A DNA stretch of 61,551 bases, the filler included, from Asterionella formosa (Eukaryota): assembly GCA_002256025.1 (NCBI GenBank). It is 8 parts of 8 records of this genome, joined end to end, with 100 filler letters (N's around TTAATTAATTAA, not from the genome) between each part and the next. Parts side by side here need not be neighbours in the genome. Positions count along the whole stretch, not along the records: positions 1 to 7,629 come from NKIB01012416.1; positions 7,730 to 15,355 come from NKIB01012417.1; positions 15,456 to 23,079 come from NKIB01012419.1; positions 23,180 to 30,788 come from NKIB01012420.1; positions 30,889 to 38,475 come from NKIB01012421.1; positions 38,576 to 46,175 come from NKIB01012422.1; positions 46,276 to 53,870 come from NKIB01012423.1; positions 53,971 to 61,551 come from NKIB01012424.1. One strand, 5' to 3'. Under the pieces are notes generated by a model. The model searched no databases and was not told where the DNA came from. It saw nothing but the letters and a program-made list of their open reading frames with translations. Positions 1,315 through 55,305 of this stretch are shown here, piece by piece (position 1 is the stretch's first letter; every line of letters starts with the position of its first letter). Both the position numbers and the translations under genes were made by a program.

Positions 1315-2555
1315 TGCCCAGATTAGGTACCGGTACCTGGAAGGCCCGGTAGCGCACATTTTATTTGCACTTATTCAGTTTCGACTCACTCCCAATGACT
1401 CGTCCCATGCCTACCAGACGAGATTGGCTGGCTTTCCATTCCAAGCTCTCTTAAGTAAATTTCTATCATGTTAAATCATCAATCCTCATTTAATCCAAGT
1501 CATGCTCTGATCATCGAAATCATGCTCACCTACTAATGCTGGTAATGTTATTCAGCAATTGGAAGACGATTTACTTATGGAATTCACCAATCAGTAACTT
1601 CTAGTTGTAGTCAGCAATTTCTACCGGTAGTCATTGTCAGCACATGCATTCTAGTCGTTTTCAGCAACTTCTAGTCGTTTTCAGCAGATTTCTAATCATT
1701 TGTAGTCACCAACTGCATAAGTAATCATAAACAAAAGAGTCATTTTGAAACTGTCAATGAATTATTAATTGATATGGTTATATATAGAGAATCAACAAAA
1801 ATGAATTAAACCAGTACTAATTGTGTCCATTTTTTCATTTATTTGGGCACAAGTGCGATTATTGGATGGCTTTAGCTAACGTACTTTAAGATTTGATTGA
1901 TAATTTTAAAAGTGTTAAATCTCGTCGTAACTTCATCATTTTGAATTGTGCATCATCTAGAGTACATGACGAAATGCGCCATCAGCAACTTCAATTTTAG
2001 AATTATTATAATTAATTTTTATGATTGTATTATCTATGTCGTGTTAGATATATGTAACTAATAGCAAAGCATCATTCTCATTTTTAGTGGAGAAATTCGC
2101 TATTTTCATCATGGTCAAGGCGGAGACGGCATGGTGCAGGATTCCCAGCCGCTCAAAATAATTGCACTGTAGCGTTTTTGATTTAGAAATAAATCGAAAC
2201 ATCTAAGCTAATTCATTTTATACTAGCGTCTACAAGGGCTACCTCAGGTACCCTGAGCATATGTCATCTGTGCATAGCCATCATAGCATATGTAATATGT
2301 ATGATATTACAAATATACTGGTACCCCGGTAGGATGTTGCATCAGACGTGACAGTGACTGGGACTATGTATATAGATATAACATTTACGTATGTTCATAG
2401 TATTGGCAAGGCTATCAGGGGTTAGTGGTTTTGTCTGTTCATGTACTGGTATACACTTGATAGGCAAAAGGGTCATTCAGAAAATCTTATTTGCATCCAC
2501 AAGCAAATTCTAGCCATGTTCAGCAAATTCTAGTCATTTTCAGCAAATTCTTTAT

Positions 2556-3769
2556 GGTTGCTGCATTTGAACCCCTAGCTCGAGGTAGGGTTTATAAAAT
2601 AATATTGAGTCAGACTAATCAAACACAAACTCTTCACATATAAATCAAATATGTATAACGCTCAACGGAGCTTTCACCAATACACACCCTTTCCATATGC
2701 TTACATACAGTCTTCAGACAAAGTAGGGGTGTAGGTCCACTCTATATATTGTCAGTATATAGGATCTGGTCAGAAACTGCAGAATGGAAATTCGGTTTTT
2801 AAACTATGCTAAAAAGACTCGAAAATTCGGGGGGAAATCTGTTTATTTGGCATAGTTAAAAACCCAAGTTCCTTTCTGCACTTTCTCGCCAGAAGTTATA
2901 TACTGATGCTATGTGAAAGTTACCTATGTATCTAAATCGCCGTCAGACCCAGCCAACGTTTAGCTATCGTCGTCCAGAAACTCGACAAAATCGGCCTTTT
3001 CTACGGTCGCCAAAAAATCGGAATCAGAATTATTATGTGCCGAAACGTCATCATCGGAATAGTAGTCGTGTGCCGGAATTTTTAGTCCTAAAATCTCCTG
3101 TGTAAGAAATTCCATTGTAAGTGCCCGCTTCCACTTTTTTAATATGATTGGTGAACGTGAATTACATTCCTCTGTTTGATTGGCCTGGTTTGCGAGGTCT
3201 TGCAAACCCACGCCGGCCACATTGGATTAACATGTAATATTCTCTTGAGTGTTCTGACAGTCCGGTACTCTAGTCACGATGGGTACCGGTTGATGATCAT
3301 CATTGGACATACGCGTACCGCTCCTTGAGTGCACTTTCAAATTTTTGCCGAGCCGCCGGGTCGTATACATGACCCATAGTCGTCGATCGGAGTATAGATG
3401 ATTGTGGTACTGGTGCACATGAAGCGATGTAGAGTGCATATTTATATATGTATATATTAAAGTATTTGAATATGTGGAACGGATTCAATGCATAGCATAT
3501 AAAATCGTCAATCGGAGTATAGAGTGTCCATGCACATGTGTTGATCGTATTTTTAGCTTATATATGCATACAGCGACAATGAGTGTCAATACACATATTT
3601 GGCGATTTCGACAAGGAATCTATGTACATATTTGCTAATTTCCACAGATTTAAATATTTCAAATGGAATCACGTCATTCAAGAATAGCTAATTAAATTCT
3701 TAATTCCAGGGAATTTTCGCAACCCTAAGCAATATTTTAATTTTGCCTAGGGTTTCAAATGCAGCAACC
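2556..3769. mobile_element. Non-autonomous TIR DNA transposon, Kolobok-like
   Basis: 23-bp terminal inverted repeats GGTTGCTGCATTTGAA(C/A)CCCTAG at 2556-2578 and 3747-3769 (1 mismatch). Flanks are TTAT (left) and TTAA (right). Purine-purine termini with a TTAA target fit Kolobok. Internal parts recur at 23790-24345 and 59550-59921. Confidence 0.7.
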
Positions 3770-5350
3770 TTAATTTAGAACCAAAGAGATGATTCCTATT
3801 TGTATTCCGAAGCTAGACGACGGTATGCTGAACAGGTTCATCAGTCACCAAATCCTAGTCATGTTCAGAGACTGATTCTGCAAATCGTCATCGGTCAATA
3901 AGAGTAATGTTTTACTAAATTACTTAAGGATTAAATTGTTAGCGTAGGTAAGTCGCCAACCATATTTCGCGAAAGGTGATCATCTTAGCGTCAGTATTAG
4001 GGGAAACTACGACCGCCTAGGAAGGCAGCCCACTGCTTGTAAGGGGGGTCCGTTACCATATTTGCACAAAAGTGTCGCAATCTGCACAATGAGTTAGTCA
4101 AATACCCTGCTACTATCTGGTCATGGGGCATCACAGCTCTACGTACGGACAGTATGTTAGTCACATCCTAATGCATACCGGTATACGTCCTGTTTGTTTA
4201 TCTCAACGCTTACATTTCCGCATGTTGGACTACTACCAGTTCATTATAATGGTATATATTCTCGTACGAATATATACACCGGCATATATGTTTGGTGTAC
4301 ATACCAGTACCGGCACTAACTACGTAATTTTGATTTTGTATTCTTGCCGTGCGTAGTAGTACCTGGTACCGGCAGGGGGTTGATGATCTAAACACCTCCA
4401 TCTTGACCATGACGAAATTATTGGACTGAATTTCTCATCGAAAATTGACATCGAAGTATTCCGATTTCGTAAGTATATCTAGCCTAACATAGATGAGATA
4501 ATCGTTTAATAATGGAAAATTTTGCGCTTATATTGACAACAAAAATTTGAAATTGCCACTAGAATTTGTTTTCGTCGTCGTTTGCTCAGTTCTCAAGATA
4601 TGAACAAAAACGAGACATCGTTAAGTCCGCGATGACTAGTTTAATAACTTTTACTAAATAATTATTTCTATCTAATGTACAAATTAACGAGAAAACTTGA
4701 GCAATAGTAATCTCGGAGAGGGCACAACATCTCAAAATGCAAGAAAATACCTCAAGATATGATTTTGTACTGAGTTTCATGTACGTACTAATTTTCGTGT
4801 TTCATATTTCTATGGGATTATGGAGTAGGTCATTTCATTGTCCAATATAGACATATATGCAGACATCCAACAATGAACTGCTTGTAGTATACACAACTAG
4901 AAACTTCGCATCCCGAAAAAAATCACGAATTCCTATGACTATCTCATTGTCCACATAGCAACTCTTTTGTGCAAATAGACAATTAAGAACTCCTTGTAGG
5001 GGGGCAACCCACTTTTCCTTGCACACTAGGCAAGACCACGCGGGACGGTGAGGAGTGTGGCAGTTGAACCCAACAACTGTTTCTCAAAATACTGCGGGAA
5101 TCGAACCAAACAACTTCAAATCAAAGGCAATGTGCCCAACCAACTGAGCCATTCCCCAACTTCAAGCTCTCTCACTATGTTGTTTAGAATGATCTGTGTC
5201 GTTTGCTGTTCCTTGAAAGGTATCCTGCTCTTCTTTGCAGCCTGTGAGTGTTTCTCGTTCTTAGAAGCTCCCAACTTCATGATGGTTTTGAGGGTGATTG
5301 TGGTATTTTTCATTATAATATTTCATGACACTTTAGTTAGGTGCGCCAGG

Positions 5351-5700
5351 AAACATGCACCCCATGCGTGGACTCCTCCCATCTATGGTGCCCGCCAATA
5401 ATTTCGTGTTCATGATATCACCCAGCCCATGGTCGATTTGACGGACTAAAAATGTATTCAAGAGATCCTAGGTACCCTCTTATACTATGCCCATGCAGTC
5501 AACAGCACCATGTTGCCAGCAATTGGAACTCTTGCAACACAACGAGCTACACCTAGTACCACTGCCATGCTGGAGGCCCTACACAACTCTTAAATTATTG
5601 CGCCACACATCTCGAGGTAACCCTCCATTACACAAAACGCTCCAAGGCAATGGATATGTGTTTTTATTGGGTATGCGATTGTGTCCGCCAAGTTCAACTT
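5351..5700 (+). pseudogene. Degenerate Ty1/Copia pol fragment (RT C-terminus fused to RNase H C-terminus)
   Basis: Hand translation gives HAPHAWTPPIYGARQ*...IQEILGTLLYYAHAVNSTMLPAIGTLATQ.../TQLLNYCATH..., then KRSKAMDMCFYWVCDCVRQ. These match Copia RT and RNase H motifs. Stops, a frameshift and an internal deletion are present. Confidence 0.85.
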
Positions 5701-7103
5701 TTAACGACTAGGTTCTTGTCAACACATGCATCCCATTGTACAGGAAGGTCCAGTAATCAGCATATTGCGCGCACTTTTTATCGAACCTGCCACCTCATGA
5801 GGTGTGGTTACCAATTGAGCCATTCCCCTACATAGTAGAATACGAAATTTTCAAAGTACGCTTTTATTGAGACTTGAATATGGAGTTCATTGAGTTGCGC
5901 TAGGCCCAAATGGGCCCCAAAGGAATAACGAGTGAGAGCGAGTCCATTAAGGGACTCTTAGGGGTTGCAGACTAGGTAAACGAGATTACATTTCAATGGG
6001 ATCATGCACCCAAGCGGCTGGGGCTTTCCAGTTTCGACCGAAGTTGCAAATACAGACTTGGATGAATTGCATGGGGGATGAGCAGGAGTGAAGGAGAAAG
6101 TGTCAGCCATAGGAATATTCAGGAGGAGCAGGAGTGAGAGGAGCAGCATGGGCGGAAAGCGCCATGGTCAAGGGTGATTAACAAAGCAGCAGCAGTGCCG
6201 TGGGAATGGCTGTTGGTCGTGTACCAGAGTAGTATTAATAGAGGGCAAGTATCTCGGAAAGTTCAATGTTGCATTGTTGAAAAAGCGCCTTTCCCCAATA
6301 TATATATATCCATATATTTATGTGGTCATAGAAAAGAATGAGTCATCCTACATATAAAGGGTCATTCATGTGGAAAACGTATACTATGAGCTATAATTCA
6401 ATTCAAAGAACAATTCTTTACTGGTATTCACCAGATCTCATTAGTAGCTCATCTAATTTCTGCTGAGCGAATTCTAGCATTCATCAGAACTGAAATGACA
6501 GGTCGTAGTTGCCATATACCAGTACTCCAGTATCAGTTACTATAGCTATGTATCATCATGGCCCCGTCCGCCCTGCCAGCAACAGCCCAGTGCAACCTGC
6601 CACTTTGCACGCCCTTGATATTTTCTGAATATATAATCTAATACAGTATAGCTGCACTATGAATGCTGTTTGCAAAAAGTCATCATCTTGTTTTCGTTAG
6701 TTTTCTAGTATCAAATGTTCCAACATACACTCTGATTGACAATATCTTTTTCGATTTTTGCTTGTAGTTTCTTTTCTTAGCAAGAATGTGACTGCGGCCT
6801 GGCCTTTTGCTTCGGAGAGAGCAACTTTATTGCAGAGTGTATATTGACAGTATTTTGTCGATTTTTGCTTGTCGTTTCTTGTTTTAGCTAGAATGTGACT
6901 GTGTTTTTCATTTTGATAACATTGTTCAGCCATGTATAGCTTGCTTGTGACAAAATGCTTTCCCTTAGTCAACAAACTAGGAGGGAAAATGTGAGATATT
7001 GATAGGTGCAAGGAAAAAGTGTTGCTAAGTTGAATTTTTATGTGATGAACACATGCACCCTCACATTGGATGCAACCCAGATAGGTTAACAATGATGCCA
7101 AAT

Positions 7104-7729: not shown

Positions 7730-8199
7730 GCACATTTTGCGATTCGATGTGGTTGTTCATTAGGCTTGAATTCCAAAGAATATCAACTCCCAGTTGTGGC
7801 ACTTGTTTGCAACTTGCAAGCGCCTCAAACTGGTTATGCTGCACTGTTGAGCCATATTGAAGTCGAAACGTTGTTTCATGAATTTGGTCATGCCTTTTAA
7901 TACCGGTACCAGGGTTTTTTGTAGTTTACCTTTGTACACAGTGCTAGTTGACTGCTAGTACACTAGCTTTCACTACGGTCTTAAAAGGTTGCACTGGGGG
8001 TTGAATTTTTTGCATGTACCACCCTGGTATTTCTTGTCCCGCACACTATGATATAACGGCATTCTCTGTGGTGAGCGAATTTTTGTTCAGTTTCTACTTC
8101 CATGCTGTCATAAAAATAATTCAAATTGTTGTTGGCATTGCTTTTATACATAGTAGTAGCAATAAGCAAACCTATTCTCCTGTTGTTTCGAGCGGACAG

Positions 8200-10480: not shown

Positions 10481-10523
10481 TTGGAAAACAATAAATATTA
10501 TCACGCTTTTTCATTCTATTTGC

Positions 10524-10556: not shown

Positions 10557-10619
10557 GTTACCAGTAGAAGTGGCATATACGCCTGAGGTGGTCTCTTGCC
10601 TGCAAGTACACCTGATAAC

Positions 10620-10890: not shown

Positions 10891-12184
10891 GCACACAGCA
10901 ATAATGGGCGCGCTCGTCTGATAATAAAAAATTATTATATCATGTGTGTATTATAACACAAATTATTTTGGTGATCTGCTACATAATATCATCCTTGCGC
11001 TCTGATAATAGAGATATTTTAGATTACTTCTCTGACATTAGATATATTTTTAACCTTAATTTTCAACAGTTAAATTTTCATATTGATGTATCCTCTTGTA
11101 TGCTATGCCGCCACTTGTTCATTATATTCATGAGTTCTATATATTCATCCTCATTGTCAGTCACTGACATCTAAGCCGCGTATTACGTGAAGTGACCATC
11201 ACATAAATAAGCCTAGTTGATTTTGAATGGATCACATGAATTAGTTGAATAAATCAAAATGCTTACTTGAATATAGCTATATATTATCTGAATACATCAC
11301 GTTAATTATTTGATCAGAGTATCATGCATGCATTCCTGATCAGCCATCACTATATTACGTGATCACCTTCACATATTTATTTGAAATACTGCATGTAATT
11401 ATTTGAAATCCTTCACGTTATTATTTGAAAACCTTCACTTAATTCTGTAATTTAGTTCACATTGCCTTATAATTTTGTTCGCTTAATTCTATAATATAGT
11501 TCACGTAATGCTTGAAATTTGTTTATGTAATTTAAAAGTAGTACAATCAAATATGTTGATTTCTAATTCAACTGCCGGTATTTCACATTACATGGGAAAC
11601 AAATCTCGATATGCAATCAAACAAAGCAGTTCTTTCAGAATGGCATCTTCAGTCTTGAGAAGGCAGGCATCATGAGACGCATCATGAGACGTCTGTAAGG
11701 ACAATGCAAGACAAACAGAAACCGTTCATTCTGAATGAAAAAATTATTCATTCTTGAAAAGGCATCATGGTGCGAAATCGCAACAAGAATGTATCATACT
11801 GGCTTCCTCCTTTTCCTCAAAATGACTTCTTCATTGACCTGCAAAGATTTACAAAAGAACAGTGGGTCAGTAATTCATTTAATAGAACTAGCAACAGCAG
11901 AAAGCAACACACACATGTGCTATTCAACTGTTTCACGGAGCAGTTAAATTGACAGGAGCAAGACACCGGCATTAGCCAGCCACCAGGCAGCACCGCAACT
12001 CACTGATGCATTCAAAATAATGCTCCTGTTGTGAAATGGACGGCTAAAATGTAAAATAAATGTAGTGAACAATAATAGAACCAGCCACGTGATTTATCGC
12101 TCGCTTTGCTGATGTGATGACAAAAACTGAGGATTAAGCTTACCTTAGTAAAATCTTCCATTGCAGGTCTCCATATATACAATA

Positions 12185-13074
12185 AAATGTTATTGTCATA
12201 TGATGTACCGGTACACATGAAGAGCTCCCAACCAAAAAAGGGGCTTAAACAATTTGCTACCAAAATCCTTGCGGTTATGACTTACACCAATTGAATGGTC
12301 TAAATAATTAGTTCCAACGGACGTAGAAAATATTGATGCAAACAAATTTCAGAAAAAATACCGGTACACGTAATTGTGGAAAACAATGCACATATAGTGC
12401 AATATTTTCGAATTATGTTTATGCCAATATGATCATCTCAACAATATCAAATGTTCCATATTGAGAATATCTTTGAAAATTAGAAATGTACAACACTTGA
12501 TATATTTATTTATGTACAAATTATAATGCTATATACATGGCAGATATATTTGAAATCGTTCTGTCATGTTAACAAACAATGCCTGCTTCATGAAAAGAAA
12601 CATCGTAGTAAAGCACATGACAAGAAAGGAAAGTTTACGCAATACATAACGAAAAACATTGTGGCTTCGACACATTGCGCATTCGAAGGATGGAGTATGT
12701 TTAAGCTAATGAAGCCATCAATGTCGTGGTACGTGGATGACAATCGTTGGGAGGCAGGACAACAACAAATTGTTAACTAAACGCAGCCACATTTCCTTTT
12801 TTCTCAGTTGATTCAACAGCTTGTTTCGCTTTTTGGGGAGCACCAATGTAAAACAAAACAAAATTGGTAAGTGCTCTTGTTGTTGGACCTATTCACTTCT
12901 GATGGAACATAACTGACAGACACGTTTACCTTCTCTCAAACTTAAGCTAACGAAAATGAATCGGTAAGTTTTACTCGATAACATTGGAAACCTGAAACGT
13001 ACTTATTCAAGAATTTACTGACTATTTACTGTTACAGACTAATGCATCCGTTGCATTGATTTGTGGTAAGTGAA
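12185..13074. repeat. Dispersed ~890-bp repeat (inverted copy at 54380-55305)
   Basis: Long colinear reverse-complement match, e.g. gaaaatgaatcggtaagtttta and gtggcttcgacacattgcgc are shared with contig 8. Confidence 0.9.
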
Positions 13075-13590
13075 AGTATCATCACCATGGCCGCCGCACT
13101 GCGAATCGAAGGTAGTCCAATGTCCAGTGGGTCATAACCAAGGAGGTCCTGTCCAAGCGTTGTAGCCAGTGTGCGAACTCTTTTTATCGTGGTCTCGGCT
13201 TTGAGTGTGTAAGTTTGTGTCCCTGACATGTAGGTGTTAATCGCCGAGGAGGCGTTGGTGCCTGCAATGTTCAGTATTTTGTTGACAATACAAGCCCCTT
13301 GGCGTACCGGGCACATGATGGGGTCCGAAGTGCGACTTAGGGTGATGGCTTCATCCTTTTCCCCATTCTTCTGATCGCGAAACGTGATGCAGATGATGTC
13401 GGCAAGATGATTGGTTGTGTGGTCATGGGTGATGTCAGTGCGGTCCTGAAAGAAGCGTAGATCCTGGACTCGCAGTAATTTGGTGCGGCGTTCTCCGGTG
13501 ATTGTCAGGTATTCGCAGGAGCGCATTGCGAAGAAAAAGGCTAGGATGGTGGCTAGAGGACCCAGGCAAGCATCAACCGGTGTAGCTTGG
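13075..13590 (-). pseudogene. Truncated tyrosine recombinase of a DIRS/Ngaro-type YR retroelement
   Basis: FFFAMRSCEY (catalytic Arg box), ITFRDQKNG (Lys), MCPVR, and IGLPSIRSAAAM (HxxR box with H>P). The GRW/Tyr box is missing because the 12185-13074 repeat replaces it. Confidence 0.85.
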
Positions 13591-14150: not shown

Positions 14151-14558
14151 GCAGGATGTCTACAGCTTTGTTGTCAAAAGCACAAGTTTTGTGGTATGGT
14201 GATTGTGACTTTCCTTTTTGTATGAGAGATGAAGGAGTCAGAACAATAATTTACAGTGGCGACTATGCTATAGTACATAACACCCGTACATTCCTCTACC
14301 TCCTGCACGGTACCAGTAGGTCTATGGTAGTGCAATGTGGTGCAGCGACAACATGACGTCACGAAGTCATTTTGAAATATTATTGTTGCGCATGTGCACC
14401 TTTTCAATATTCATCTCCAACGTTGCATCTTGCACATCACCACACAGAAATGCAAATAAACAGCAAACTCACCAAATGTGATGATTGAAAGTGGTCACTG
14501 GTTCTTGCTATCGCTAACATGCAATTTCTTTTGTTTTACTAACCAATTTACTCTACAA

Positions 14559-16098: not shown

Positions 16099-16100
16099 TA

Positions 16101-17361
16101 CTCCCTCTGTTCCGGTACAGTTGCAACACTCTCAGCAACTAACCCGGCTAAATCCATGTCCTTCAAAGAAGCCCTCTGTAGAAGCAATGTGCAATTTCTA
16201 CGCAAGACGATGCAGGCTACGGGTACTACGTTGGTTAGATTAGTATATTGAGGCAAGCATAACACTAAATAGCAATCCATGTGCTTTGTTTAGGGCTATT
16301 GAATTTACTTAAATTTCGCTAGCCAGCATAGCTGTTTTGCTCTACATGGAGTGGTATGCAATATTCAAGATTGGCTTACTTGTATCTCGGTCTCACAACA
16401 GCACTTATTAACATGACTTTTTGAATATGAGACTTGTGACTAAAACATTCCTTTCTGGTGGCACCTCATCTTAAGAGCTAAATATATGAGAAGCCTTTGA
16501 TGCAAAGAACCATTTTGTATATATGGATATCATGATAGAAGTGATCAAAGAAACCAAACTTACTGGGATCAAACAGTTCATGATTCATTTGAACAGGGTG
16601 GTTTAATTGCAAATGATTAATAGCATAAAACACAAGATTCACAGCATTGTTGGGTGTTAGCAATGGTTTGATTGCATTAGTGTGAGGCTGTATCACTTCT
16701 ATCTTGGTTGAACAGGTGTAAAAAAAGAGAGTAGTGACTGGGAGTCCAAGCTTCTTCCCTAATGTGCAGTAAGCTCATTGCTGATGGTGAGGAATCAACT
16801 TGACAGCTGCTATAATATCATCAGGAGAATATTTAATATCTCCACCACTCTTATACTTCCGGGACAGAGCCTTGTATGATTCACTATCCCATTCGTGAAC
16901 AATTCGAGCGCACGCTTCCAGATGCGATAAATTGTGATTCTACTGACGTCGAATTTTCTAGCCAACTGGAGGTGAACATCCGGATTTACTATGAGCCAGT
17001 CGTCAATTTCGTTGCCTCCGATCTCGTCCCTTTTGAGGCTTCGAAGCAAACAATCGATGATGTAGTGTCGCTGTTCTGGTGTCAAATCCTTCTTTTTATG
17101 CCTATTGACTAATAACGAAGGGTCAACGAAAAAGGGGGGTGGTCCCGAGCAAACATTCCAATTGGGGTGCGATTCTACGAAAACTGCGCCAAAAGAACCC
17201 GAAGTCAGGTTCACCTAATTGTAGACTATTTAGATAATGCTCGGAATAATTTTTGCTACCAGTACTGGACGGAGAATTTTTGGAGGTTGCCCTTCATATG
17301 AGGCAGTGAACTAAAGCTTGGTTGCAACGTTGCAACTACGTATATACCGGAACAGAGGGAG
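16101..17361 (-). mobile_element. Defective plant-type (DD39D, Stowaway-related) Tc1/mariner transposon
   Basis: Perfect 17-bp TIRs CTCCCTCTGTTCCGGTA with TA duplication on both sides. The minus strand carries transposase relics: LTPEQRHYI..LARKFDVSRITIYRIWKRA (HTH), HTNAIKPLLT, FYHDIHI.KKWF and KSHIQKVM..AVVRPRY. Multiple stops and frameshifts; catalytic core partly deleted. Confidence 0.9.
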
Positions 17362-17517
17362 TACCAGGCATCATAGCTACCGGTACTTTTCCCCATGATA
17401 GCGTCTAAGATTTTTTTGAATGTGATTTGCTGCGTTTGTTGAACTGACAACACATCCTAAATCTTAGCACACGACATATTTAGTTCCAGGGTACCCTTCC
17501 TTGCTCTCAACAAGATC

Positions 17518-19732: not shown

Positions 19733-19908
19733 CGTAAAAAACGATAAAATTGTTACCGGTAGCATTGGTCAATCACAAGAGTACCATGCGCTTATGATGG
19801 CAGGAGAGTACCGGTACTTGAGTATGGTTCACTTAAGGGTATAACAACCTTTTACATTTTGGTGCCTTTGTTGGGCTTATTATTTTTTTCTACGTTCTTA
19901 CTGAAGCC

Positions 19909-34810: not shown

Positions 34811-35369
34811 TAGGCACTACTAGTATGTAATAATTTAGCTACCATTTTGCGATTCTTTTTTACATACAAAACACAAGAGACGACAGGTAGTGGCTGTGAG
34901 CAGTTGGAGAATCCTTCATGATGTTGTCGCAACCTTGACCATGACGAAAATACGAATTATCTCCACGAAAATAGAGAACGACGCTTTGCTACTTGCTACC
35001 TGTATTAAGAACGACATGGAAGAAAATACAATCGTAAAAGAAGTAAAGTAATAACACTAATAATGACAACGAAAATTGAGATCGCCGATAACAACATGAA
35101 GTCGCGTTTTTCTTGCGAGGTGAAGAACTCTCTCATTTTTCACAAGACGGAAATAATTGTCATATTGATACATCTTAGAAAAATTTGCGCTATCCTGTAG
35201 AACTAAAGAAATTTACTTCGGTCCATTATAAGGGAAATCTCTTCATTGTCCTGGGCCCCCCCTTAAGTAAAATCAGTCAAATTCAGTCACGGCAGTATAC
35301 ATTGGGGGGTCCAGGACAATGAAGTATACGGTACTCCATTTAGATGGATTTAGGTAATGTTGTTTCTCT
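34697..35369 (+). repeat. ~670-bp direct repeat, copy 1
   Basis: Near-identical to 36157-36823; contains a hairpin at 35241-35324 (CTTCATTGTCCTGG arms). Confidence 0.95.
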
Positions 35370-36156
35370 GTTGTTGATGACTTGCTCTTGTCATGATCAT
35401 TGCTGATTCGACTTGATCCGTTCTCATCATCTTGCCTTCATTCATTCATTCACTTCCTTTATAATTTGCTGTGATACCCAAGATGGTTCATCCTCGTCAC
35501 TGTCATCAGCATCTTCAAAGACGGAAAACGGGTCGTCGACGGCAGCCATGATGGATGTAACTGTACCGGTCAGTACAGTTTTAAATTCATGACATATTAG
35601 GCCGTTGCTAACCGTTGACCCAAACCAAAACCCAAAAACTTTTTTTTGGATTGGTTTTGGTTTTGGTCAACTGACGAAAAAACGATGCTATCGGTTTTTG
35701 GGAAATCCTAAATGCTGTCAACCACCCATCTACTGTGACGTAGGATGACAAAACCATTATAAAAAAAGTAAAATATTTCTATTAGACTAGTTATATAAAT
35801 GAAATATTATGATTCCCATTTGGGAATTAGTTAGTTTTTCCCGCAATTTGAGCGATGTTGCTGTCTTGTCATTGAACGACCTGGTACCTGGTACCGGTAC
35901 AATGGTAGTACACACCGGTAAATGTACCAACAATCCTTTGCTGGCCTCATCCTGTGGTGCGATCCACAAAAAATCTTTTCCTTGACACGAAATATACATG
36001 TATGGCATCATGAGAATCACAACTGTTTCTGCCTTCACATTGAAGGAACCAAGAAAGAAGTTACCAATCAAAAGAAGGAAGATATTGATCGTTTTGGACC
36101 TGCAAAGTGGGACAAATATGCTGACTTTGGAGATGAATTCGATGGAGGTGATGGCC

Positions 36157-36823
36157 ATTTGGGTGTTTGGTTCCACCTCGAGAAAAATGTACAAGGGGGT
36201 CCAGCTACCAAACACCCAATAATTTTCTTGTCATAGACAAAGTAATGTGCTATAATTCTTTTTGTCCTCGTAGGCACTAGTACATAATAATTTAGCAACC
36301 ATTTTGCGATTCTTTTTTACATACAAAACACAAGAGACGACAGGTAGTGGCTGTGAGCAGTTGGAGAATCCTTCATGATGTTGTCGCAACCTTGACCATG
36401 ACGAAAATACGAATTATCTCCACGAAAATAGAGAACGACGCTTTGCTACTTGCTACCTGTATTAAGAACGACATGGAAAATACAATCGTAAAAGAAGTAA
36501 AGTAATAACACTAATAATGACAACGAAAATTGAGATCGCCGATAACAACATGAAGTCGCGTTTTTCTTGCGAGGTGTAGAACTCTCTCATTTTTCTCAAG
36601 ACGGAAATAATTGTCATATTGATACATCTTAGAAAAATTTGCGCTATCCTGTAGAACTAAAGAAATTTACTTCGGTCCATTATAAGGGAAATCTCTTCAT
36701 TGTCCTGGGCCCCCCCTTAAGTAAAATCAGTCAAATTCAGTCACGGCAGTGTACATTGGGGGGTCCAGGACAATGAAGTATACGGTACTCCATTTAGATG
36801 GATTTAGGTAATGTTGTTTCTCT
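36157..36823 (+). repeat. ~670-bp direct repeat, copy 2
   Basis: Near-identical to 34697-35369, with few substitutions and small indels. Confidence 0.95.
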
Positions 36824-38744: not shown

Positions 38745-39589
38745 CGTCTCTTCCTTTACTCAAAAAAGGATTTTCAAAGTCAAAGCAGTGTCACGATGAT
38801 TTGTGATAATGTGTCAACAATAAGTGCTTCTACATAACATATATCTTTACACAGAGGTACATCTATTTGGAGTGCAGTACCGGTAGTACAAGCAAAAATT
38901 GAAAGAACAATTGTTGCTGTCATATACCTGTGTCTATCTTACCTCGTAACTATACCCGTTATACATAGGTCTACTGTAGAACTACATAGTTCAACATCCT
39001 AAGTACACATGCATACCTGAGGATATTCTGACACCAATTCCTGGTAGTAATATGACACATCACCTTCGTATGTGTTGTCAGGTTGAGGAACATAACCGTA
39101 ATATACCAATAAAAGTAATGGATATAGTACCGGTAGGCATTTTTGAATGAATATATTGGTACGGTTGGTAAAAAATACTACTGGTATTCTCTTGTTGGAA
39201 TGGTCTAGTAAGTACAAAAACAGAGCTGCAAGGAATCCACTGGTAGTCCTTCGGGTATTCTTCGGGAAAAACACAGTCATCACCATTACGAAAACGCAAG
39301 CGCTCATAGCGGTTTATGAAGATACAGGCAAACCGCCAACATCATCATCGCTTATTAGTGGAGCATAGAATGTAAAAAGATGCGATCTAATCACTGGCAA
39401 AAAATGGAAAATACAAGCACTAGCCACGATGTTGAACTACAATCATAATGATCTGTAGATGGCACTAGCGCCAAAATGAGAGAAATTTTCATTGCAGCTT
39501 GCCAAATCAAGAGAAACAGCAAGAAATTATATTGAAATGATAGAAAAGAAATCACGAACTAATGGTGAAAGCCAAGCAATGACACCAGC

Positions 39590-42890: not shown

Positions 42891-45366
42891 CTTGACTGTG
42901 AAGCTTCTGACACACAACATGTGGCAGTTACATTGTAAGTGACTGCATGGAATTGCATGTTTCTAATCCGCACAGCAATTTGAATGAAAGTACTGCTGGT
43001 CTACAAAGCCAGTGGTGTAATCTAGTTCAACTACATGACATCATTATGTCGACTTTCATAAAAAATAGTTAATAGCAAGATAGCTCAATATTGATTCAAG
43101 TTAGTACTATATAGTGAACTATATTCATGGTATTTTTGTTGCCTAATGTTTTCCTGCAAATCTGAGCCGTTGTGGAAAAAGCATGCATCACAAAATCAAA
43201 TGTTCTGGAGATTTCAACTGTCATCATAGCAAATGGAACAGACAGCTCACTGCAACCAATGCAAATGTGTTCACTGTTGATGACTTGGCAGTCAATGCAA
43301 ATCCTACCAAGTCCTGCCTTGAGAGTCATGTTGATCATCATTACGAAAAAACAGGGAATTGGTTGTATTTGTTAAAGTGAGGAAAATAGCCAAAGTAGTA
43401 GGAGAAGGCTCATTTCCCAAAGCACGTGTTACAATGATGAAATTTTTGTCAGCCTTAGCTAACACTTGCACTCTCAACATCATAGCGCTATTGGTAAGGT
43501 AATTTATAAAACAATTCAATACTACAGCTGCATGATATATGTCATCAGGCACTATATATTTGACCCTCTCATTAAGATCAAGATGAGGAACAATCTGATC
43601 AAATTGGCCCATTCAAGTTTCATGTGCTGTCTGGAAATCAAGCATGATTGACATGATTCCCATCATGGTAGGTTTTTTCTGGGAGATGAGTTGTCACTAT
43701 CATCATGGTGCTTTCGTGAATGCTTTGTCCGTTCGTTGCTGCTCCTTCCATGCTCCGTCTGCCTCTTCTCTTCTTTATAAGCAATCTGCATCGCTCATCG
43801 ACTAATATGGTCAGCATCACTGTGGTATTGTATTCCCATTGAATAGAAGGACTTGGAACATCGACAATACAAAGTGGACGACTGGTTGATTGACCAGGTC
43901 GATCTGCCCTATAAATCATGATTTGACAGGTTTAAATCTTCTTCTGGAAACTTTGCTTGTAAATGCTGCACAGGAATTTGAAGTATGTACCCTTCATGCC
44001 TTGTCCACTACTAGAAGCAAGGCCGAAGTTTGTGCAAATCTTGGGTGATGTTTGTACTTAAAATGATAGTGCCGTATGGACAAATAAAACCGGTATGAAT
44101 TGTTTCCATTCAAAATATGCACATGGGATGAGTGCGATTATTGGATAGCTTTAACTTTTAAGATTTGATTTCAATTTTTTTAATTGAAATGATTGTTTGG
44201 TGGCAACGCTTGTTCCTAATCTCCTGTCACTTTATCCAACAAGCAAGGTATCGCCTGTCATGCTCAATGTTTACCTGGATCCCATGTACATCGCAATTTC
44301 AATTGCAGTTGCTATCACACATATCATCCTCTCCTAGTAGCTAGGTTGTCTTCTTTCAGAATTCGAAAATACAGATCAGCCATATGTTGGTGGTGATATT
44401 TCTTCTTTTCCTCCTTATGGCGATCTGCACACGATGGATCATCTGAACTTGAATGGAACCACAAATCTAGCATCGAAGTTGGTCACAAAAGGAATGCTCC
44501 TTGTCAGTTGTGTACTCAGTTGGTCCTTGAGCTGCCATACTAGGAAGGAGGCCAACAATTTCAACAAGAGCAATAGCATGAGCAGCAATGATGATGATGA
44601 AAATGTTGAATATCAATGATTTTAATTATGGTATCGATGAATGTCAGAATATACATATAATGTTACAAGTCTAAATGGGTGACATAAAATGGCTTAGATA
44701 TCTATAACTGTATGTTCTACCTTCTTAGAACTGATTACAATAGCTATCCCCTTTCTATTGTCTACAATGTTCGTACTTGGTTCGAATTTTATAAAATTTT
44801 AGAAACTTCGATAATTTTAGTCGGAAGATGGGGTTGGGGTTATGAATTGTTGGCTCTCAGTTTTTTGGTGGTGGTTTAAATCGGAGTACCGGTATTACAT
44901 TCGAGCAACAGGAGCTGTATACAGTAATACACATGTGATATCAACGAGGATAGTGTTTTACTCTAATACTATAATTATGATCTACGACGTAGCGAACACG
45001 AATGCCGCTGAACACGGAATGACGCACGGTCATAGCATCTTTTTTTGTGCATCGTTCCATCCTTCGCGATTTTTATCATCAGTGCCACTGAAATCGATCT
45101 TGATGGTTCACATTAACAGAAACCATTATAAACAGCACAAAACCAAAATTAATTGACTTTCTTGTTTGCTGTTCTTGATATTTGTCATCTTTCCCCGACC
45201 CCACAAATAGAAAGCTCAAGGTACGCACAACGATCGCTTCGATGTGCCTCCCAACACTGTTGAGTGCCATGGGGGTCGATCAATAGAGCAGAGCCTTGGG
45301 ACGCTCTTGGTTTCGTGTTCAGTGAATTTGGCGCCGAGCAGGAACTTCTTATTGAATCAAGGTGAA

Positions 45367-46466: not shown

Positions 46467-48701
46467 ATGGCTACTGCCAATCCTCCCTACACGCCGTGTG
46501 TGTACTTGGGCAAGAGCGGCTTGTTAGGGGGTGCGCCTACGCAACAAGTGCCGTCACCAGGAGAAGAAAAATGGCGTTCAGGGCCCTTCATGAAACTTGA
46601 CAGTGATGAAAGAAAGACAGTGGTATTCCACATACCATCAGGTCGTCGTTACAAAGACTATCGGTTCAAGACAGACCCAGTGATACAGCGTGCTAGCTTA
46701 ACGATACGCTATGTAGAAGCGAACAACGAGGAAGATATTCGCAGGTTAGTAGCCTCCAACGACGACACTGAGTTAAAGACACAACTTAATGCCGGTTTTC
46801 AGGCGGTTCCTTTGGGGACGTTCGAGGGAGGCTTTCAGAGTTTATTGAACAAGTGCCATCAAGAAGTACATGTACAGCGAACCAAACATGCAGGGTTGGT
46901 GTTATTCGGCAAGACAGAGAAGAATGGACTGGGCTGCAAGGAGAGTAATAAGAGTATAATTAACGTACAACTGGAGATCTGCGTTGAAGAAATTTTTGAA
47001 GATGTAAAGCTTCCTGCTAGGCCTACACTTCTGATACCACCAGCGCCCATTCCTGGAACAACAACAAATGATGATCATCTTCCTTCCCCTGCAACTCCAA
47101 CACCAAGCAGTATCAATTCCACTGATCCCTTTTCTGATGTTCGGTCGAAAATGGAGGAAGCTATGCAGAATGAGAATTCCAGACCAATCGAGCTTCCTGT
47201 GGAATTCATTTATAGTTGTACAAACAACTTGAATGATTCCTTGAAACTTGGTCAAGGAGCTTTTGGTGCTGTCTACAAAGGCGAGTATGGCAATCGGGTT
47301 TTTGCTGTTAAACGTATCCTTGATGGCATCGCTGTGAAGAAAGATGAGTTGCTTGAAAAGACTGCCCCTTACCGTACAAATGTTAAAACTGAATTGGAGG
47401 TGAGCTCATTCGTGGTATCAAATATTTATGTTTTCAAGACTTTATGTTTCTCATTCTACTGTCATACTGTTTTAGGCATTAACGAGGTTCCAACACCCCA
47501 ATATTGTATCCTTGTATGGCTATCATTTGTCCCCTGATTCGTCTAATCAATTCCTTGTATATGAGTATGCATCCAAGGGTTCTCTTGATACATTATATAA
47601 GAGTGAACAAAAAATATCAAGTCTCTCAAGTAAGATCCGACTTCGAATCATGAACGAAATTATTTCTGCCATCTACTTTATTCATACTATAAAAAAGAAC
47701 GGCCACACTTTGTTTCATCGTGACATCAATCCATTTAATATCTGCCTTGATCAGAACTATACTGCCAAGCTGATTGATTGTGGCCTAGCCAAGTTTGTGC
47801 CTAAGGGTAGTTCAGTCAAAACCAATCCAATTCCTTCCTCAGTTTGTTACACAGCAGGTGATGGAACATATGGGACACCTGGCTACATATGTCCATATCA
47901 TCTTAAGGGTAACAAATATGCTCCTGCATGTGATGTTTACTCGTTTGGCATGGTCATGGTTGAGCTTGTGACAGGCTGCCTCCTGATTCGTCTAATCAAT
48001 TCCTTGTATATGAGTATGCATCCAAGGGTTCTCTTGATAAATTTTATGAGAGTGAACGAAATAGATCATGTCTCTCGAGTAAGATCCGATTTCAAGTTAT
48101 GTTCGAAATTATTTCTGCCATCCACTTCCTTCATACTGATACAAAGGATAACTTCATTCTGTATCATCGTGACATAAAATCGGCTAATATCTGGCTTTCA
48201 AATAACTATACTGCCAAACTGATTGATTGTGGCCTTGCCAAGTTTGTGCCTGTCGATGACTCATTTTCTACCAATGCAATTTCGAGCGCAGTTCGGAATT
48301 CATCCAATGGTGTAGTCTTTGGGACACCTGGCTACACATGTCCATTTTATTCAAAGGGAGGTAAAACATTTGAAGCATCATGTGATGTTTACTCATTTGG
48401 GATTGTCATGATTGAGCTTGTGACAGGCTGCCTTCAAAATGATAGGACAAAGTTGGGAGATTTCTCTGAACGCTACTTCCCAAATAATTTTGATGGAACT
48501 CCAGCAGAGGCATTGGTGTTGGCAATTCCAAAATTGGTAGAGGATGCTGATTCTGAAGCAGAATGGGAAGATGGAATGCTGTCCTCTGTGTGCTCATTAG
48601 CCATTCGTTGCATTCAGAAGAATCGCGAGAAAAGGCCAAAGACTCTTGAATTGATTCAAGAGTTGGGTCAACTTGCAAGGCCAACAGATCATATTGAGTG
48701 A
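46467..48701 (+). CDS. IRAK/Pelle-like (TKL) protein kinase with unknown N-terminal domain; intron 47400-47475; frame disrupted by a 449-bp internal duplication
   Basis: LGQGAFGAVYKG, FAVK, ELE/ALTRFQHPNIVSLYGY, LVYEY, HRDI, AKLIDCGLAK, GTPGY and CDVYSFG. Subdomains V-IX occur twice (47533-47981 and from 47982). Confidence 0.8.
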
Positions 48702-49225: not shown

Positions 49226-49715
49226 CCTGTTTTCACTAGCCAAAACCATTCCACATGCAAATAATAATGCTTTGAGGATCATGTACAGTTCTGCACATGT
49301 GGAAAAGTAAAGAGCATACTGAATTACTGCACTCAAAAGGTAACTATGAGTTTACAGGTGTACCTACTATGTAGTGCTCAAGTTGAATGGTACCTCCATC
49401 TGACCATGTTGATAGACACCTCTTCTTTCCATGATACCTGGTATGATGGCTGATTGATGTGGTAATGCAAGATCTGACTTGTTGGATTATAATTGGATTA
49501 TAATTGAGTCCACACTCCCTGTGAATCAAGCTAATATTCTTGACAAAAAAGGGGCTACGAACATTTTAAAAAATCCAAAGCTTTGGACAATTCGAAACAG
49601 AGATACAATAATGATACTACAAGTTTTTTCGGAGTATATGCAGTTAGTCTACAGAATGTGTGGTATGCACAGTTTATTGTAACATAGCAGTACCAGATAC
49701 CAGATACCAGTTAAA

Positions 49716-49921: not shown

Positions 49922-50157
49922 GATTGAATTTTAACATGCATAATACATGAAGGTTTTTTTATAGGCAATGGTTATTTAGAAAATATTTTATCGTTTGCGT
50001 TTTTTTCGCAGCCAGAAGCCGCATCTTTCTTATATTGGTGGAATCACTTGCTTCAATTTTATGTAATTGGCGTGAGGGCTGCACATACGGACTGCATGGA
50101 AGGGTTGGATGAATATGGTCCTCTGGGTATTGAGATTCAACTTAACCTGACAGTCAA

Positions 50158-51517
50158 ATGGCAAAAGGAGACATTGAATTCAATCATCTCCTAGTCATGG
50201 AGTGCGGGAACAAGAATGACCTCAGTGATGTTATATCGCATAAAAACATTGCAGGCAATGACATTTTCATGGTGCGTTTCATTGCAATCCAAATTGCTAA
50301 GTGCCTTCAGTTTCTAAATGAAGAGTGTAAGGTTATGCACGGAGATGTGAAGGCTCGAAATTTTGTGTCTGGTAGCGAGGGTGTTGGATATGCTGCAATT
50401 GATCTTGATAATGCGGCATTAATTGACAAAGAAAATGCTGGTCAGAAGCGAACAAGCTCTGGATACATGCCTCCCGAACAGGCTACTGTTGAGTACCATA
50501 TTCGAATAGAGCAGGTTGCTGCAAAGGGAGTTAAAACCAGTCCCATGCTTCCCGAACAGGCTGCTGTTGAGTACCAGATGCAAAAGAAGGAGCAGGGGTG
50601 CTGTAGTCGTTAAAGCCAGTCCCTAATATGACATGTGGTGCTTTGGAGCCCTTCTATATAATCTCTGCACTGGTCGTCAATTTTTTGAAGTGGATACGCG
50701 TGAAGAAGTATTGCTGGACGAGCTTAAGAAAATAAAAGATTGGAGTGACCAAGTTTGTGAAGAAAAGGTCGAAACATTTTTGCCAAAAATCAAAGACTGG
50801 ACTTTTTTGAAAACTCTGCTTAAAGGATTGCTGAAGAGGGATCCAAACGAGCGCTATCATTGGTGGGGGAATATTATTAGCAAGCTTGAGAGAGATCCAG
50901 GAAAAGGCTATCACTGTTGAATTGATAATTTTAGTAAAGGTGAAGAAGGTGATATTAATAAAAAAAATTTAACCTCAATGCAAGTGATTGCAACTGAAGT
51001 GAAACAAATAAATCGTGAAGTGCAAGGTCTGCCAACTGAAGTGAAACAAATAAATCATGGAGTTCAGGGTTTGCAAGGTTTGCCAACTGAAGTGAAACAA
51101 ATAAATCTTGGAGTGCAAGATTTAAAAACTGAAGTGACACAACTAAATCAACAAGGCCAGGCCATGTTCTCTTATTTGAAAGCTTAAATACCACAAATAA
51201 TGAAGATTCTTCGTACTATCGATGCTGAATTAAAAGAGAGCTGTCCCAGAATTGTTTATATTAAACAACTCAGTAAACAAGCAGGGGCCTCAAGCAACCT
51301 CACGACTTGTCTAAGCAACCTGGTAAAATTTGAAGTGGAGATATACTTTGTTTGTCAGCATTCATTTACAGTTGTTAAAGAAACCAGAATTACTATCAAG
51401 GTAACCCGGCAGTGGGTGAAATATATTGTACCTGTCATAGCTGTGGTAGGTCTATCACACACTCTACTGTGTCACTTCTCTTGTCTCTTCCAATTAAAAA
51501 AGATTATTGAGTCATAA
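50158..51517 (+). pseudogene. Ser/Thr protein kinase pseudogene with C-terminal repeat tail
   Basis: LLVMECG, MHGDVKARN, AIDLDNA, SSGYMPPE, then a frameshift and stop (ASP*YDMWCFGALLY) and LLKRDPNER. Followed by PTEVKQIN repeats and a CPRIVY...IYFVCQHS segment. Confidence 0.8.
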
Positions 51518-51639
51518 ATTTGATTTGTTGAAAATAACTGTTGACTTTGTGTAGTTGCTCTAAGAGGTCATCAGATCTGCTCCAAATGATCCAGTATCAA
51601 TGATGAATAATGGGAGAAGTTGTGAAGGAAGAAGACTAC

Positions 51640-52727: not shown

Positions 52728-52937
52728 GGGAAAAATTCTCAATCCATTTCCGGAATTTTGCTTAGCAGAATATCGGGTAAGCTAAAATGACCCTCGGGGT
52801 TATTAATCTACCGGTATGTTAAATACTAATTTGGGAAAAATTCTCAATCCATTTCCGGAATTTTGCTTAGCAGAATACCGGGTAAGCTAAAATGACCCTC
52901 GGGGTTATTAATCTACCGGTATGTTAAACACTAATTT
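52728..52937 (+). repeat. 105-bp tandem duplication (2 copies)
   Basis: 52728-52832 and 52833-52937 differ at about 2 positions. Confidence 0.95.
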
Positions 52938-53870
52938 ATGTACCTGTTGTACTGATACCAGTGTACCAGTACACTGTAAAAAAAGTGTTTTATTTTTTAA
53001 TAGCTCATAATTTCTCAAAATGTCCTCATCAGTCATGGAACGTTTTCATACAAGAAGATCCATTATGTATTCTATATAAGTTTATATGAAGATATGCAAA
53101 ATTGATAAATATCGGTAGTAGATGATATGTGTGACTGTTTTCTATCATTTACACAAAAGCCCTTTCAACACCATATTTTATTGCTCACATATTGCACATA
53201 TCACGAAGGGCATATGTATGTACAAACAAATTATGAGGGACAAAAGTTCCGGCATCATGGTGATGACTGAAAATGAAAAGAAATTTAGAGCTTTCATGTA
53301 GAACTCAAGTGTTAAATTCTTCTGCAGTCTGACTGCAATGCTAGCTCTTTCTAGACAAGCTCAGTGTATTAAAACCTTCTGTTCTAATCCCACCTTATTG
53401 TGAGCTTATTTGATCTATCTTGTAATCGTTCACATGACCAATTATTAAGGTTCTCTTCCCAAATTTGTATATAGATATTCATTGTGTTGTTAGACATTCA
53501 ATTCTCAACTGACAACTCAACTCCACTCACTTAGTAGAACAATCGTGAATATTCAATGCTATCTGCATTGCGTATATACCTTTCCTTCATTGAAATATTT
53601 ATTACTTAGAACATTCTCCATTCGAATATTTACCTTGGTTTGCTGATATAGTTCTTGGCAATCAATGCTGTTCAAATTCTCACAGCATTTCAATACGGGA
53701 TTTTGGCTGGAATATTATTCAAGATTGATTAGTTCGACTGAACTAATATGCACGCAGTACTAAATCTTGACATCCTCCCTGTTCCAGTTCCAACAATCCA
53801 TTGTCCCATTGCAAATATCATATGCATGCGATTCATGCACCTTCTGAGTTACATTCTTTGACAGCAGGTC

Positions 53871-53970
53871 NNNNNNNNNNNNNNNNNNNNNNNNNNNNNN
53901 NNNNNNNNNNNNNNTTAATTAATTAANNNNNNNNNNNNNNNNNNNNNNNNNNNNNNNNNNNNNNNNNNNN
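53871..53970. other. Artificial contig spacer
   Basis: N-run/TTAATTAATTAA/N-run. Confidence 0.98.
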
Positions 53971-54379
53971 TAAATTGCTTCATCGTAAATCTATCGTAAA
54001 CATGATCATAATTCTAATCACAAGCATTGTTCAAAATAGATTGAAATGGATCGTAATTTAACTATCAAATTTAGCAATGCTATCTATTAATCTACATGCC
54101 AGCGACCCAACGTTTCTCTCTCTACTCGGCTCAATGTATATTGTTCCTGTCTCGCCCTTTTCTTCCTCTGTTCTGAATCTTGTGCCAAGCTATGCCTTCC
54201 TAATGTTGCGTCTCTCTCCCTGCTGTTAGTGTCATTCTGAACTCGTCGACAATTCCGTTGTTTGATCGGTTATATTGTCCTATGCAGTTACAGTTACAAT
54301 GAGAAGGAACGACTTGTTTGCTAGACATGTTACACTGACACCACAACTTCACGCCATTCCATCGTATCCTCTTGCTTGA

Positions 54380-55305
54380 TTCACTTACCACAGCCAAATC
54401 AAAGCAAGTGATGCATAAGTCTGTAAAAGTAAATTGTCAGTAAATTCTTGAATAAGTAAGTTTCAGGTTTCCAATATTGACGAATAAAACTTACCGATTC
54501 ATTTTCGTTAGCTTAACTGTGAGAGAATGTAAACGTTTCCGTCAGTTATGTTCCATCAGAAGTGAAAAAAACCAACGACAAGAGCACTTACCAATTTTGT
54601 TTTGTTTTGCTTTGGTGCTCCGCCCCCAACAAGCGAAACGAGCTGTTGAATCAACTGAGAAGGAGAAGGAAATGTGCATTTAGTTTACAATTTGTAGTTG
54701 TCCTGCCTACCCCCCAACGATTTTCATCCAAGTACCACATTGATGGCTTCATTACCTTATACATACTCCATCCTTCGAAGGCGCAATGTGTCGAAGCCAC
54801 AATGGTTTTCGTTATTGCGTAAACTTTCCTTTCTTGTCATGTGCTTTACTACGATATTTCTTTTCATGAAGCAGGCATTGTTTGTTAACATGACAGAACG
54901 TTTTCAAATATATTTGCCATGTATATAGTTATAAAATTTGTAAATATATAAATATATCAAGTGTCATACATTTATAAAAATCAAAGGCACTCTCAACATG
55001 AAACGTCTGGTATTGTTGAGATGATCACATTTGCTTATAGATAATTCGAAAATAATCAATGCACGATGTGTCCATTGTTTTTCACGACTTCGTGTACCGG
55101 TACTGTTTCTGGAATTTGTTCACATCAATATTTTTTTACGTCCGTTGGAACTAATTATTTAGACCATTCAATTGGTGAACTGAGTCATAACCCATTTGTA
55201 TCATTATTTATACGCGAGGATTTTGGTAGCAAATTGTTTAAGCCCCATTTTTGGGCGCGAGTTCTTCATGTGTACTGGTACATCATACGAAAATCACAAT
55301 TTATC
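54380..55305. repeat. Dispersed repeat, inverted copy of 12185-13074
   Basis: Colinear reverse-complement similarity throughout. Confidence 0.9.

Follow-up and report, generated by a model that had tools for sequence, protein, structure and literature searches.

Abundance and form of the octamer

The stretch of DNA analysed here (the window) covers 61,551 nucleotides of the diatom Asterionella formosa (assembly GCA_002256025.1) and consists of eight ~7.6 kb pieces joined by N spacers, 61 kb being sampled in all. Its open reading frames (ORFs) encode eukaryotic proteins, including GFAT, AMP deaminase, Polo kinase, DGAT2, an HMG-box protein, LRR proteins and kinases. The GFAT ORF is 100% identical to the protein of a metagenome contig, and its closest named relatives (80-83%) are transcriptome entries whose cut labels were read as araphid pennate diatom genera, followed by raphid pennates, in line with the diatom source of the window. 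The subject of this analysis is the palindromic octamer TACCGGTA, which recurs throughout the window and which we discuss as a putative protein-binding site.

A pattern search of the whole window located 28 exact TACCGGTA sites on all eight contigs, reproducing every site that had been counted by hand in the first-pass annotation. In order, the contigs carry three (1328-1335, 1622-1629 and 4176-4183), three (7901-7908, 12206-12213 and 12359-12366), three (17378-17385, 19754-19761 and 19809-19816), eight (24615-24622, 24681-24688, 26102-26109, 26222-26229, 27858-27865, 28523-28530, 29078-29085 and 30765-30772), five (33905-33912, 34154-34161, 34370-34377, 34546-34553 and 35892-35899), three (38878-38885, 39128-39135 and 44887-44894), two (52809-52816 and 52914-52921) and one (55095-55102).

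Expected counts were derived from 100 dinucleotide-preserving shuffles and from a first-order Markov model. The shuffled sequences held a mean of 0.29 copies and a maximum of 2, and the Markov expectation of 0.25 corresponds to a 110-fold excess. The octamer is the commonest 8-mer of the window, with a both-strand count of 56 vs 28 for TATATATA. This enrichment is not inherited from shorter k-mers and resides in the full 8-mer, which contains 28 of the 41 ACCGGT sites and 28 of the 111 CCGG sites. Maximum-order Markov ratios of only ~1.1 at k=7-8 were considered as counter-evidence and rejected, because most of its sub-words in the window come from TACCGGTA itself. A mild over-representation is also seen for two further TAC-NN-GTA palindromes (TACTAGTA, 5 sites vs 0.5 expected; TACGCGTA, 2 vs 0.2), and GTAC (243 vs 141) and TACC/GGTA (490 vs 295) are enriched as well, the excess of these short words being far above the contribution of the exact sites.

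The word is sharply defined. Its one-substitution neighbours amount to 46 sites over 12 strand-merged words, 11 of which have 0-5 sites each. The remaining word, TACTGGTA/TACCAGTA (TACYRGTA), accounts for 17 of the 46 sites, a 13-fold excess over expectation, and is the form that a C-to-T change at the central CpG of TACCGGTA would yield. These decayed forms lie at 2316-2323, 2444-2451, 4302-4309, 6419-6426, 6517-6524, 10559-10566 (~80 bp beyond the GFAT stop), 14311-14318, 17257-17264, 20529-20536, 30530-30537, 30771-30778 (overlapping the exact site 30765 by TA), 39179-39186, 52964-52971, 55273-55280, 55320-55327, 59809-59816 and 60171-60178. The window has a CpG observed/expected ratio of 0.71 and a TpG/CpA ratio of 1.27, indicating that CpG decay is active in it.

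The flanks of the exact sites are unique. Among the 56 outward flanks, base composition is at background past the third base, and the +1 position shows a preference (C 23, G 15, T 12, A 6). Repeat finding placed exact sites in homologous sequence in two pairs only. The pair 52809/52914 represents the two copies of a 105-bp tandem duplication, and the pair 12359/55095 lies in a paralogous segment of ~0.9 kb, ~90% identical and inverted (12150-13080 vs 54395-55330). With no common flanks and only these two homologous pairs, the copies are not members of a single repeat family, a possibility that had been raised against the motif. A sharply defined 8-mer with rare other neighbours and unshared flanks thus has the profile of a recognition site rather than that of a repeat family.

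Variation in length is equally restricted. One-base insertions at the centre of TACCGGTA occur at 11 sites and are all A or T, vs 0.25 expected, whereas insertions elsewhere inside the word are nearly absent. These W-variants, TACC(A/T)GGTA, had been put at about ten; the 11 counted (0.26-0.29 expected) comprise TACCTGGTA at 4360-4368, 24505-24513, 27851-27859, 30627-30635, 35885-35893 and 49435-49443, and TACCAGGTA at 24661-24669, 28516-28524, 34602-34610, 55357-55365 and 58262-58270. When the spacing of half-sites was scanned, the inverted arrangement TACC-Nk-GGTA gave 28 sites at k=0, 12 at k=1 and 6 at k=2, and 1-4 at any k from 3 to 12 (~1 expected); the 2-bp centre fillers are heterogeneous. 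Everted arrangements were not enriched in the window, and the direct arrangements GGTA-N2-GGTA and GGTA-N3-GGTA occurred 11 and 14 times, vs ~2 expected.

Some copies are joined through a common TA. Three exact composites of the form TACCWGGTACCGGTA were found, in which the first TA of the exact sites 27858, 28523 and 35892 is also the last of the W-variants at 27851, 28516 and 35885. Three further W-variants precede a decayed copy; that at 4360 is followed by TACCGGCA, with the TA in common. In all six TA-sharing composites (4360, 24505, 27851, 28516, 30627 and 35885) the W-variant comes first on the + strand, an order that is probably due to chance (~0.03 two-sided), as nothing should fix the orientation of the contigs. 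Within 60 bp of exact sites, the strongest enrichment among 6-mers is that of half-site-like words (GTGTAC, GGTAGC, TTGGTA, AGGTAC and TGGTAC). Taken together, the spacing, the centre insertions, the composites and the enriched 6-mers describe islands in which full, spaced and partial GGTA(C) units are piled up.

Placement relative to genes and repeats

Confident coding sequence was defined as ORFs with a codon-usage score of at least 12 bits (trained on Pfam-supported exons) together with Pfam-supported ORFs, which make up 32.6% of the window; the gene models are approximate. None of the 28 exact sites falls within it (P=1.6e-5), even though two of the three reading frames of TACCGGTA are stop-free; this agrees with the earlier statement that recognised exons lack the word. 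The W-variants are likewise excluded (0/11), and the sole family member in confident coding sequence is one of the 17 decayed forms, at 20529 in the Polo kinase gene. Under a looser definition that takes in every ORF of at least 100 aa (48.5% of the window), 7 of the 28 exact sites lie inside. The density of exact sites outside confident coding DNA is 0.68 per kb.

This distribution bears on the proposal that the word is a eukaryotic analogue of HIP1, the highly iterated palindrome GCGATCGC of cyanobacteria, which is common inside genes. Statistically the analogy holds: both words are palindromic octamers with a central CG-containing core, an excess of orders of magnitude (110-fold here) and unique contexts. 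It fails inside genes, where the prokaryotic word abounds and the eukaryotic one is absent from confident coding sequence. The same distribution speaks against a word drive of the HIP1 or very-short-patch (VSP) repair type, linked to methylation or mismatch repair, in which an enzyme with CCGG/CCWGG as its target between TA and TA would skew mutation or repair towards the word. Cytosine methylases classically target the cores CCGG and CCWGG, and the CpG-transition form is the commonest one-off variant in a window depleted of CpG. Such a drive should, however, also act on silent positions of coding DNA, yet 0 of the 39 exact or W sites are coding, and we regard it as very improbable.

Within non-coding DNA the sites are clustered. 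Against random placement within non-coding DNA, which served as the null for both clustering and repeat boundaries, exact sites form 10 adjacent pairs within 300 bp vs 4.7 expected (P=0.006), and the whole motif family forms 29 vs 17.4 expected (P=0.0005). W-variants are found within 150 bp of an exact site in 7 of 11 cases (1.8 expected); for decayed forms the association is looser (5 of 17 vs 2.7 expected, P=0.13).

The islands lie beside both ends of genes. Ten sites are within ~350 bp of a confident gene end, and 6 of these face a 5' end and 4 a 3' end, given the approximate gene models. On the 5' side, 17378 precedes the first AMP deaminase ORF by 76 bp and 44887 the HMG-box ORF by 317 bp, while 7901, beyond the ~350-bp limit, precedes the GFAT start codon (ATG at 8317) by 409 bp; 26102 and 26222 are in the 5' flank of the ORF at 24885-26069 (-), and 30765 is in the 5' flank of the ORF at 29512-30432 (-). 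On the 3' side, 24615 and 24681 are in the other flank of ORF 24885-26069, and 19754 and 19809 lie where the AMP deaminase and Polo kinase genes converge, in a gap of 176 bp between the stop codons and at 25 and 96 bp past them. Further TACCGGTA sites are 197-427 bp past stop codons. The presence of sites at 5' and 3' ends and in the convergent gap indicates that the word is intergenic and not strictly promoter-specific.

The sites past stop codons would also suit an RNA-level or 3'-end signal, that is, a transcript element, a bidirectional terminator or a polyadenylation element between packed genes, for which a palindrome would serve both strands. Upstream sites are nevertheless at least as many as downstream ones, the distances to stop codons vary, and a lone 8-bp palindrome is unable to form a hairpin, so that we consider this explanation very unlikely.

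The first-pass annotation had also placed the octamer often at repeat junctions. The four examples it cited are real, but the association is at chance level: an exact site lies within 50 bp of 4 of 39 repeat boundaries (2.7 expected, P=0.29) and any motif-family member within 50 bp of 7 of 39 (5.3 expected, P=0.28). Such neighbours are expected by chance because non-coding DNA holds 0.7-1.4 family members per kb. The paralogous pair 12150-13080/54395-55330 allows individual positions to be followed. The octamer at 12359 and 55095 is intact in both copies, although several bases within 10 bp of it differ, and the intact site 12206 aligns with TACCAGTA at 55273. At the motif positions of this one pair the copies are either the same or differ by substitution, and no indel of the pair touches the motif. 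The duplication extends 40-60 bp past the motif, which is therefore not its boundary. This segment carries GT...AG intron-like boundaries as well as the two motif positions, and it is probably the 5' part of a duplicated gene.

These data are relevant to an origin of the word as an excision footprint of a TA-targeting Tc1/mariner-type transposon with CC...GG ends, or as break-repair filler, where repeats of the event at the regenerated TA would build chains. Excision footprints of Tc1/mariner elements consist of TA, terminal nucleotides and TA. The octamer shares this form (TA-CC-GG-TA, in general TA-xx-yy-TA), its variability is confined to the centre as the counts for gaps of 0, 1 and 2 bp show, its three exact TACCWGGTACCGGTA composites and the decayed ones share a TA, and coding DNA is avoided. 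A mariner/Stowaway-like non-autonomous element is in fact present at 16099-17363, ending 15 bp before the exact site 17378, with TA-flanked inverted ends CTCCCTCTGTTCCGGTA that match at 18 of 20 positions. Its termini, however, read CTCCCTC, and a scan of the 61 kb for terminal inverted repeats (TIRs) found no TA-flanked element with CCGG, CCAGG or CCTGG ends; with a CC prefix it returned one weak AT-rich candidate (13/16), a yield inside the span of 0-4 obtained with control dinucleotide prefixes. The heterogeneous 2-bp centre fillers, the absence of an excess at repeat or transposon boundaries and the behaviour of the oomycete counterpart as a conserved promoter motif (see below) also disagree with this origin. 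The option of a repair or excision filler, one of those first put forward for the palindrome, is weakened by the chance-level junction association and by the lack of a CC...GG-ended element in the window, and we consider it unlikely.

A metagenome scan with two TACCGGTA copies 40-70 bp apart as the pattern returned at least 118 distinct loci with at least 491 kb; among the matches listed (118 loci), none overlaps the window and 55 hold the seed pair alone. In three gene-bearing eukaryotic loci the seed pair is upstream of a gene. Locus L057 has TACCGGTA sites 155-405 bp before an arrestin/C2 ORF, and its best named relatives (30-37% identical) are ochrophytes mixed with a green alga. In L022 a split carboxylesterase gene is preceded by three sites and followed by two; the named relatives for this locus are mostly diatoms (53-61%), with an opisthokont scoring similarly. 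In L027 a 1508-aa zinc-finger ORF has four sites in front of it, at distances of 371-1478 bp. Other loci hold irregular accumulations in ORF-poor DNA: 11 dispersed copies in 3.8 kb of L073, and 11 copies in 1.7 kb of L055, where GGTAC-like debris surrounds the copies and unrelated repeat words occur as well. Selection for the motif biases the densities in all these loci, which demonstrate no more than the existence of similar clusters next to genes of other eukaryotes.

Among the matches listed, several of the richest loci are tandem arrays with periods of 21-46 bp, several short loci are tandem arrays too, and TACCGGTACCGGTA occurs in L073 and L074. Arrays of this kind that contain the word would be in keeping with a neutral slippage micro-repeat, with the octamers as seeds or remnants of (CCGGTA)n or (CCWGGTA)n and no sequence-specific function. 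In the window, the enriched direct GGTA-N2-GGTA and GGTA-N3-GGTA arrangements and the continuation of 7 of 56 flanks with CC point the same way. The other 49 flanks break the period, though, no two exact sites of the window are 6 bp apart, and slippage leaves unexplained why isolated copies of 1.3 units are in 110-fold excess, in unique contexts and on all eight contigs. We hold this account to be quite improbable.

Oomycete counterparts and a candidate role

The octamer has a counterpart in oomycetes. There, TACCGGTA is motif M94 of Phytophthora infestans promoters, a 'high-confidence' palindrome scored as conserved (Roy et al. 2013, PMC3597505); its Table S1 row gives 0.03-0.22 per kb across promoter sets and conservation flags of yes, no and yes. 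Motif M93, TACATGTA, is identical to M94 save for the two centre bases and has 4150 occurrences in promoters (PMC3597505). Likewise palindromic, GTACCGGTA ('motif-9') is described as an inverted repeat that is abundant, precedes 1,284 Phytophthora genes and correlates with expression at infection stages (Seidl et al. 2012, PMC3520976), and streme-5 of Plasmopara halstedii, ATACCGGTAT, was equated with motif-9 (PMC10031896). For TACATGTA (M93 / AM-20), binding by PsMyb37, a MYB-related protein of Phytophthora sojae, is reported from yeast one-hybrid and gel-shift (EMSA) assays, as well as lowered effector gene expression upon PsMyb37 knockout (PMC11134190).

The accessible parts of the oomycete motif papers report no binding protein for TACCGGTA itself, which is also absent from the main text of a 2024 paper on P. 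infestans binding specificities (PMC11267843). A match in bioRxiv 10.1101/116012 is merely part of a primer. Whether the palindrome had been described was left undecided in the first-pass annotation; in oomycetes it has, as M94, motif-9 and streme-5, and no diatom report was found in the literature searched, most subscription journals lying outside it.

The diatom and oomycete words share an identical palindromic octamer that is over-represented in gene-adjacent non-coding DNA, and both hosts are stramenopiles. The +1 preference for C (23 of 56 flanks) fits the GTACCGGTA form. The chance that a random top palindromic 8-mer, out of 256 possible, would match one of the five P. infestans palindromes is ~2%. 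Differences are nonetheless evident. The oomycete motif was defined in upstream regions only, at 0.03-0.22 per kb, and is tied to infection-stage and effector genes, whereas the diatom word reaches 0.68 per kb of all non-coding DNA, is found at 3' ends as well and is the commonest 8-mer. The sister motif TACATGTA, like TACCGGTA a palindromic TAC-NN-GTA octamer, is abundant in promoters and protein-bound in P. sojae, but it is not enriched in the window (2 sites vs 1.3 expected), so that the diatom and oomycete systems are not simply the same. No MYB domain was found among the 98 ORFs scanned in the 61 kb. A much higher density and a wider intergenic spread in a new lineage amount to a known cis-element in a new setting.

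Comparable elements are found elsewhere in eukaryotes. The Drosophila DRE, TATCGATA, is bound by DREF/BEAF-32; Reb1-type Myb-like general regulatory factors of yeast have sites at both promoters and terminators; and the plant P1BS, GNATATNC, is bound by the MYB-CC dimer PHR1. Like TACCGGTA, these are short (near-)palindromic words, dense in intergenic DNA. Their sequences differ from it, and the resemblance would be functional only.

TACCGGTA may be a binding site, arranged in clusters, for a dimeric DNA-binding protein, a reading taken from sequence patterns to which we give about an even chance. It accounts best for the observations because of the sharp octamer, the exclusion from coding sequence, the homotypic clusters that include weaker half-sites, the inverted-only spacing and, above all, the identity with the oomycete motif. 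Site 12359/55095, intact in both paralogues amid differing bases, and the placement of the seed pair ahead of a gene in L057, L022 and L027 also speak for it. The protein-site option, one of several that had been listed for the palindrome, is accordingly the one favoured, with an identical octamer serving as an oomycete promoter motif and a sister palindrome bound by a MYB-related factor. The word would act as a cis-acting recognition site in duplex DNA for an abundant sequence-specific protein, which would read the inverted half-site pair TACC|GGTA, most probably as a dimer. The analogy with TACATGTA makes a MYB-related factor a candidate binder. Binding of TACCGGTA in diatoms, the identity of the binder and the effect of its binding are inferred. 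Sites would be kept in intergenic clusters beside gene starts and gene ends. Their presence at 3' ends and their very high density suggest a general intergenic role rather than a pathway-specific switch; the protein may thus mark or organise intergenic regions as promoters, boundaries or terminators.

Several points weigh against a binding site of this type. The sister motif that is protein-bound in oomycetes is not enriched here. The density is 3-20x that in P. infestans promoters, which is high for an ordinary transcription-factor site. The word is not promoter-specific, with two sites in the convergent 176-bp gap and 4 of the 10 near gene ends facing a 3' end. Tolerance of a 1-bp centre insertion and the TACCWGGTACCGGTA chains fit a junction-forming process equally well. 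Finally, the sample is limited to 61 kb, and the additional metagenome loci were selected for carrying motif pairs.

A bolder possibility, which we think doubtful, is that TACCGGTA was written into the genome by a process that inserts CCGG or CCWGG plus a new TA at a non-coding TA, and that the oomycete TACCGGTA and TACATGTA began likewise and were later co-opted. Excision of a transposon family not yet seen, or a templated break-repair reaction, could provide such a process. A genome that accumulates a self-extending palindrome in this way would be a true eukaryotic counterpart of those with highly iterated palindromes, and its writing by transposition or repair would represent a new kind of genome-shaping process in eukaryotes.

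If TACCGGTA is instead a protein-binding site, its significance is of another kind. The known cis-regulatory words of diatoms are very few, and none was found at the density of TACCGGTA. Should the commonest 8-mer of a diatom's non-coding DNA indeed be the word that marks Phytophthora promoters, the factor-site pair may have persisted in stramenopiles over hundreds of millions of years. The octamer would then offer a handle for finding the diatom binding protein, for delimiting promoters and terminators in compact diatom genomes and for building synthetic regulatory parts.

Further repeats in the window and in metagenome loci

Five unrelated metagenome contigs (L110, L100, L092, L099 and L029) hold tandem arrays with one TACCGGTA per unit and periods of 21, 27, 30, 46 and 34 bp, respectively. 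The non-coding DNA of another eukaryote in L055 (1-1704) and L073 (300-3100) is very rich in TACCGGTA. It also holds the words GGAGCCGGAGCC and GGATCCGGATCC, and a CAGTGTTGCGGAGCCGG-like sequence, similar to a transposon end, recurs in it.

Within the window, the mariner/Stowaway-like element has a third, partial left end at 15854, and its ORF at 16813-17214 (-) gives weak helix-turn-helix matches (HTH_7, E=0.0012). A tandem array at 55363-55937 comprises ~5 copies of a 115-bp unit, 82-89% identical, and is directly preceded by the TACCAGGTA variant at 55357. A 107-bp element with perfect 20-bp inverted ends, flanked by TA, occupies 34674-34784. Beside it are ~625-bp direct repeats (34697-35321 and 36157-36775), 97-99% identical and 1.46 kb apart, and the element and repeats together look like a recent duplication or a composite transposon. 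A piece related to them is present in inverted orientation at 2017-2144 (76%).

Protein kinase genes are tandemly duplicated at 47476-48700 and 50146-50917, where DNA repeats ~80% identical are 449 bp apart. A third kinase and a coiled-coil repeat region (50979-51161) follow this pair.

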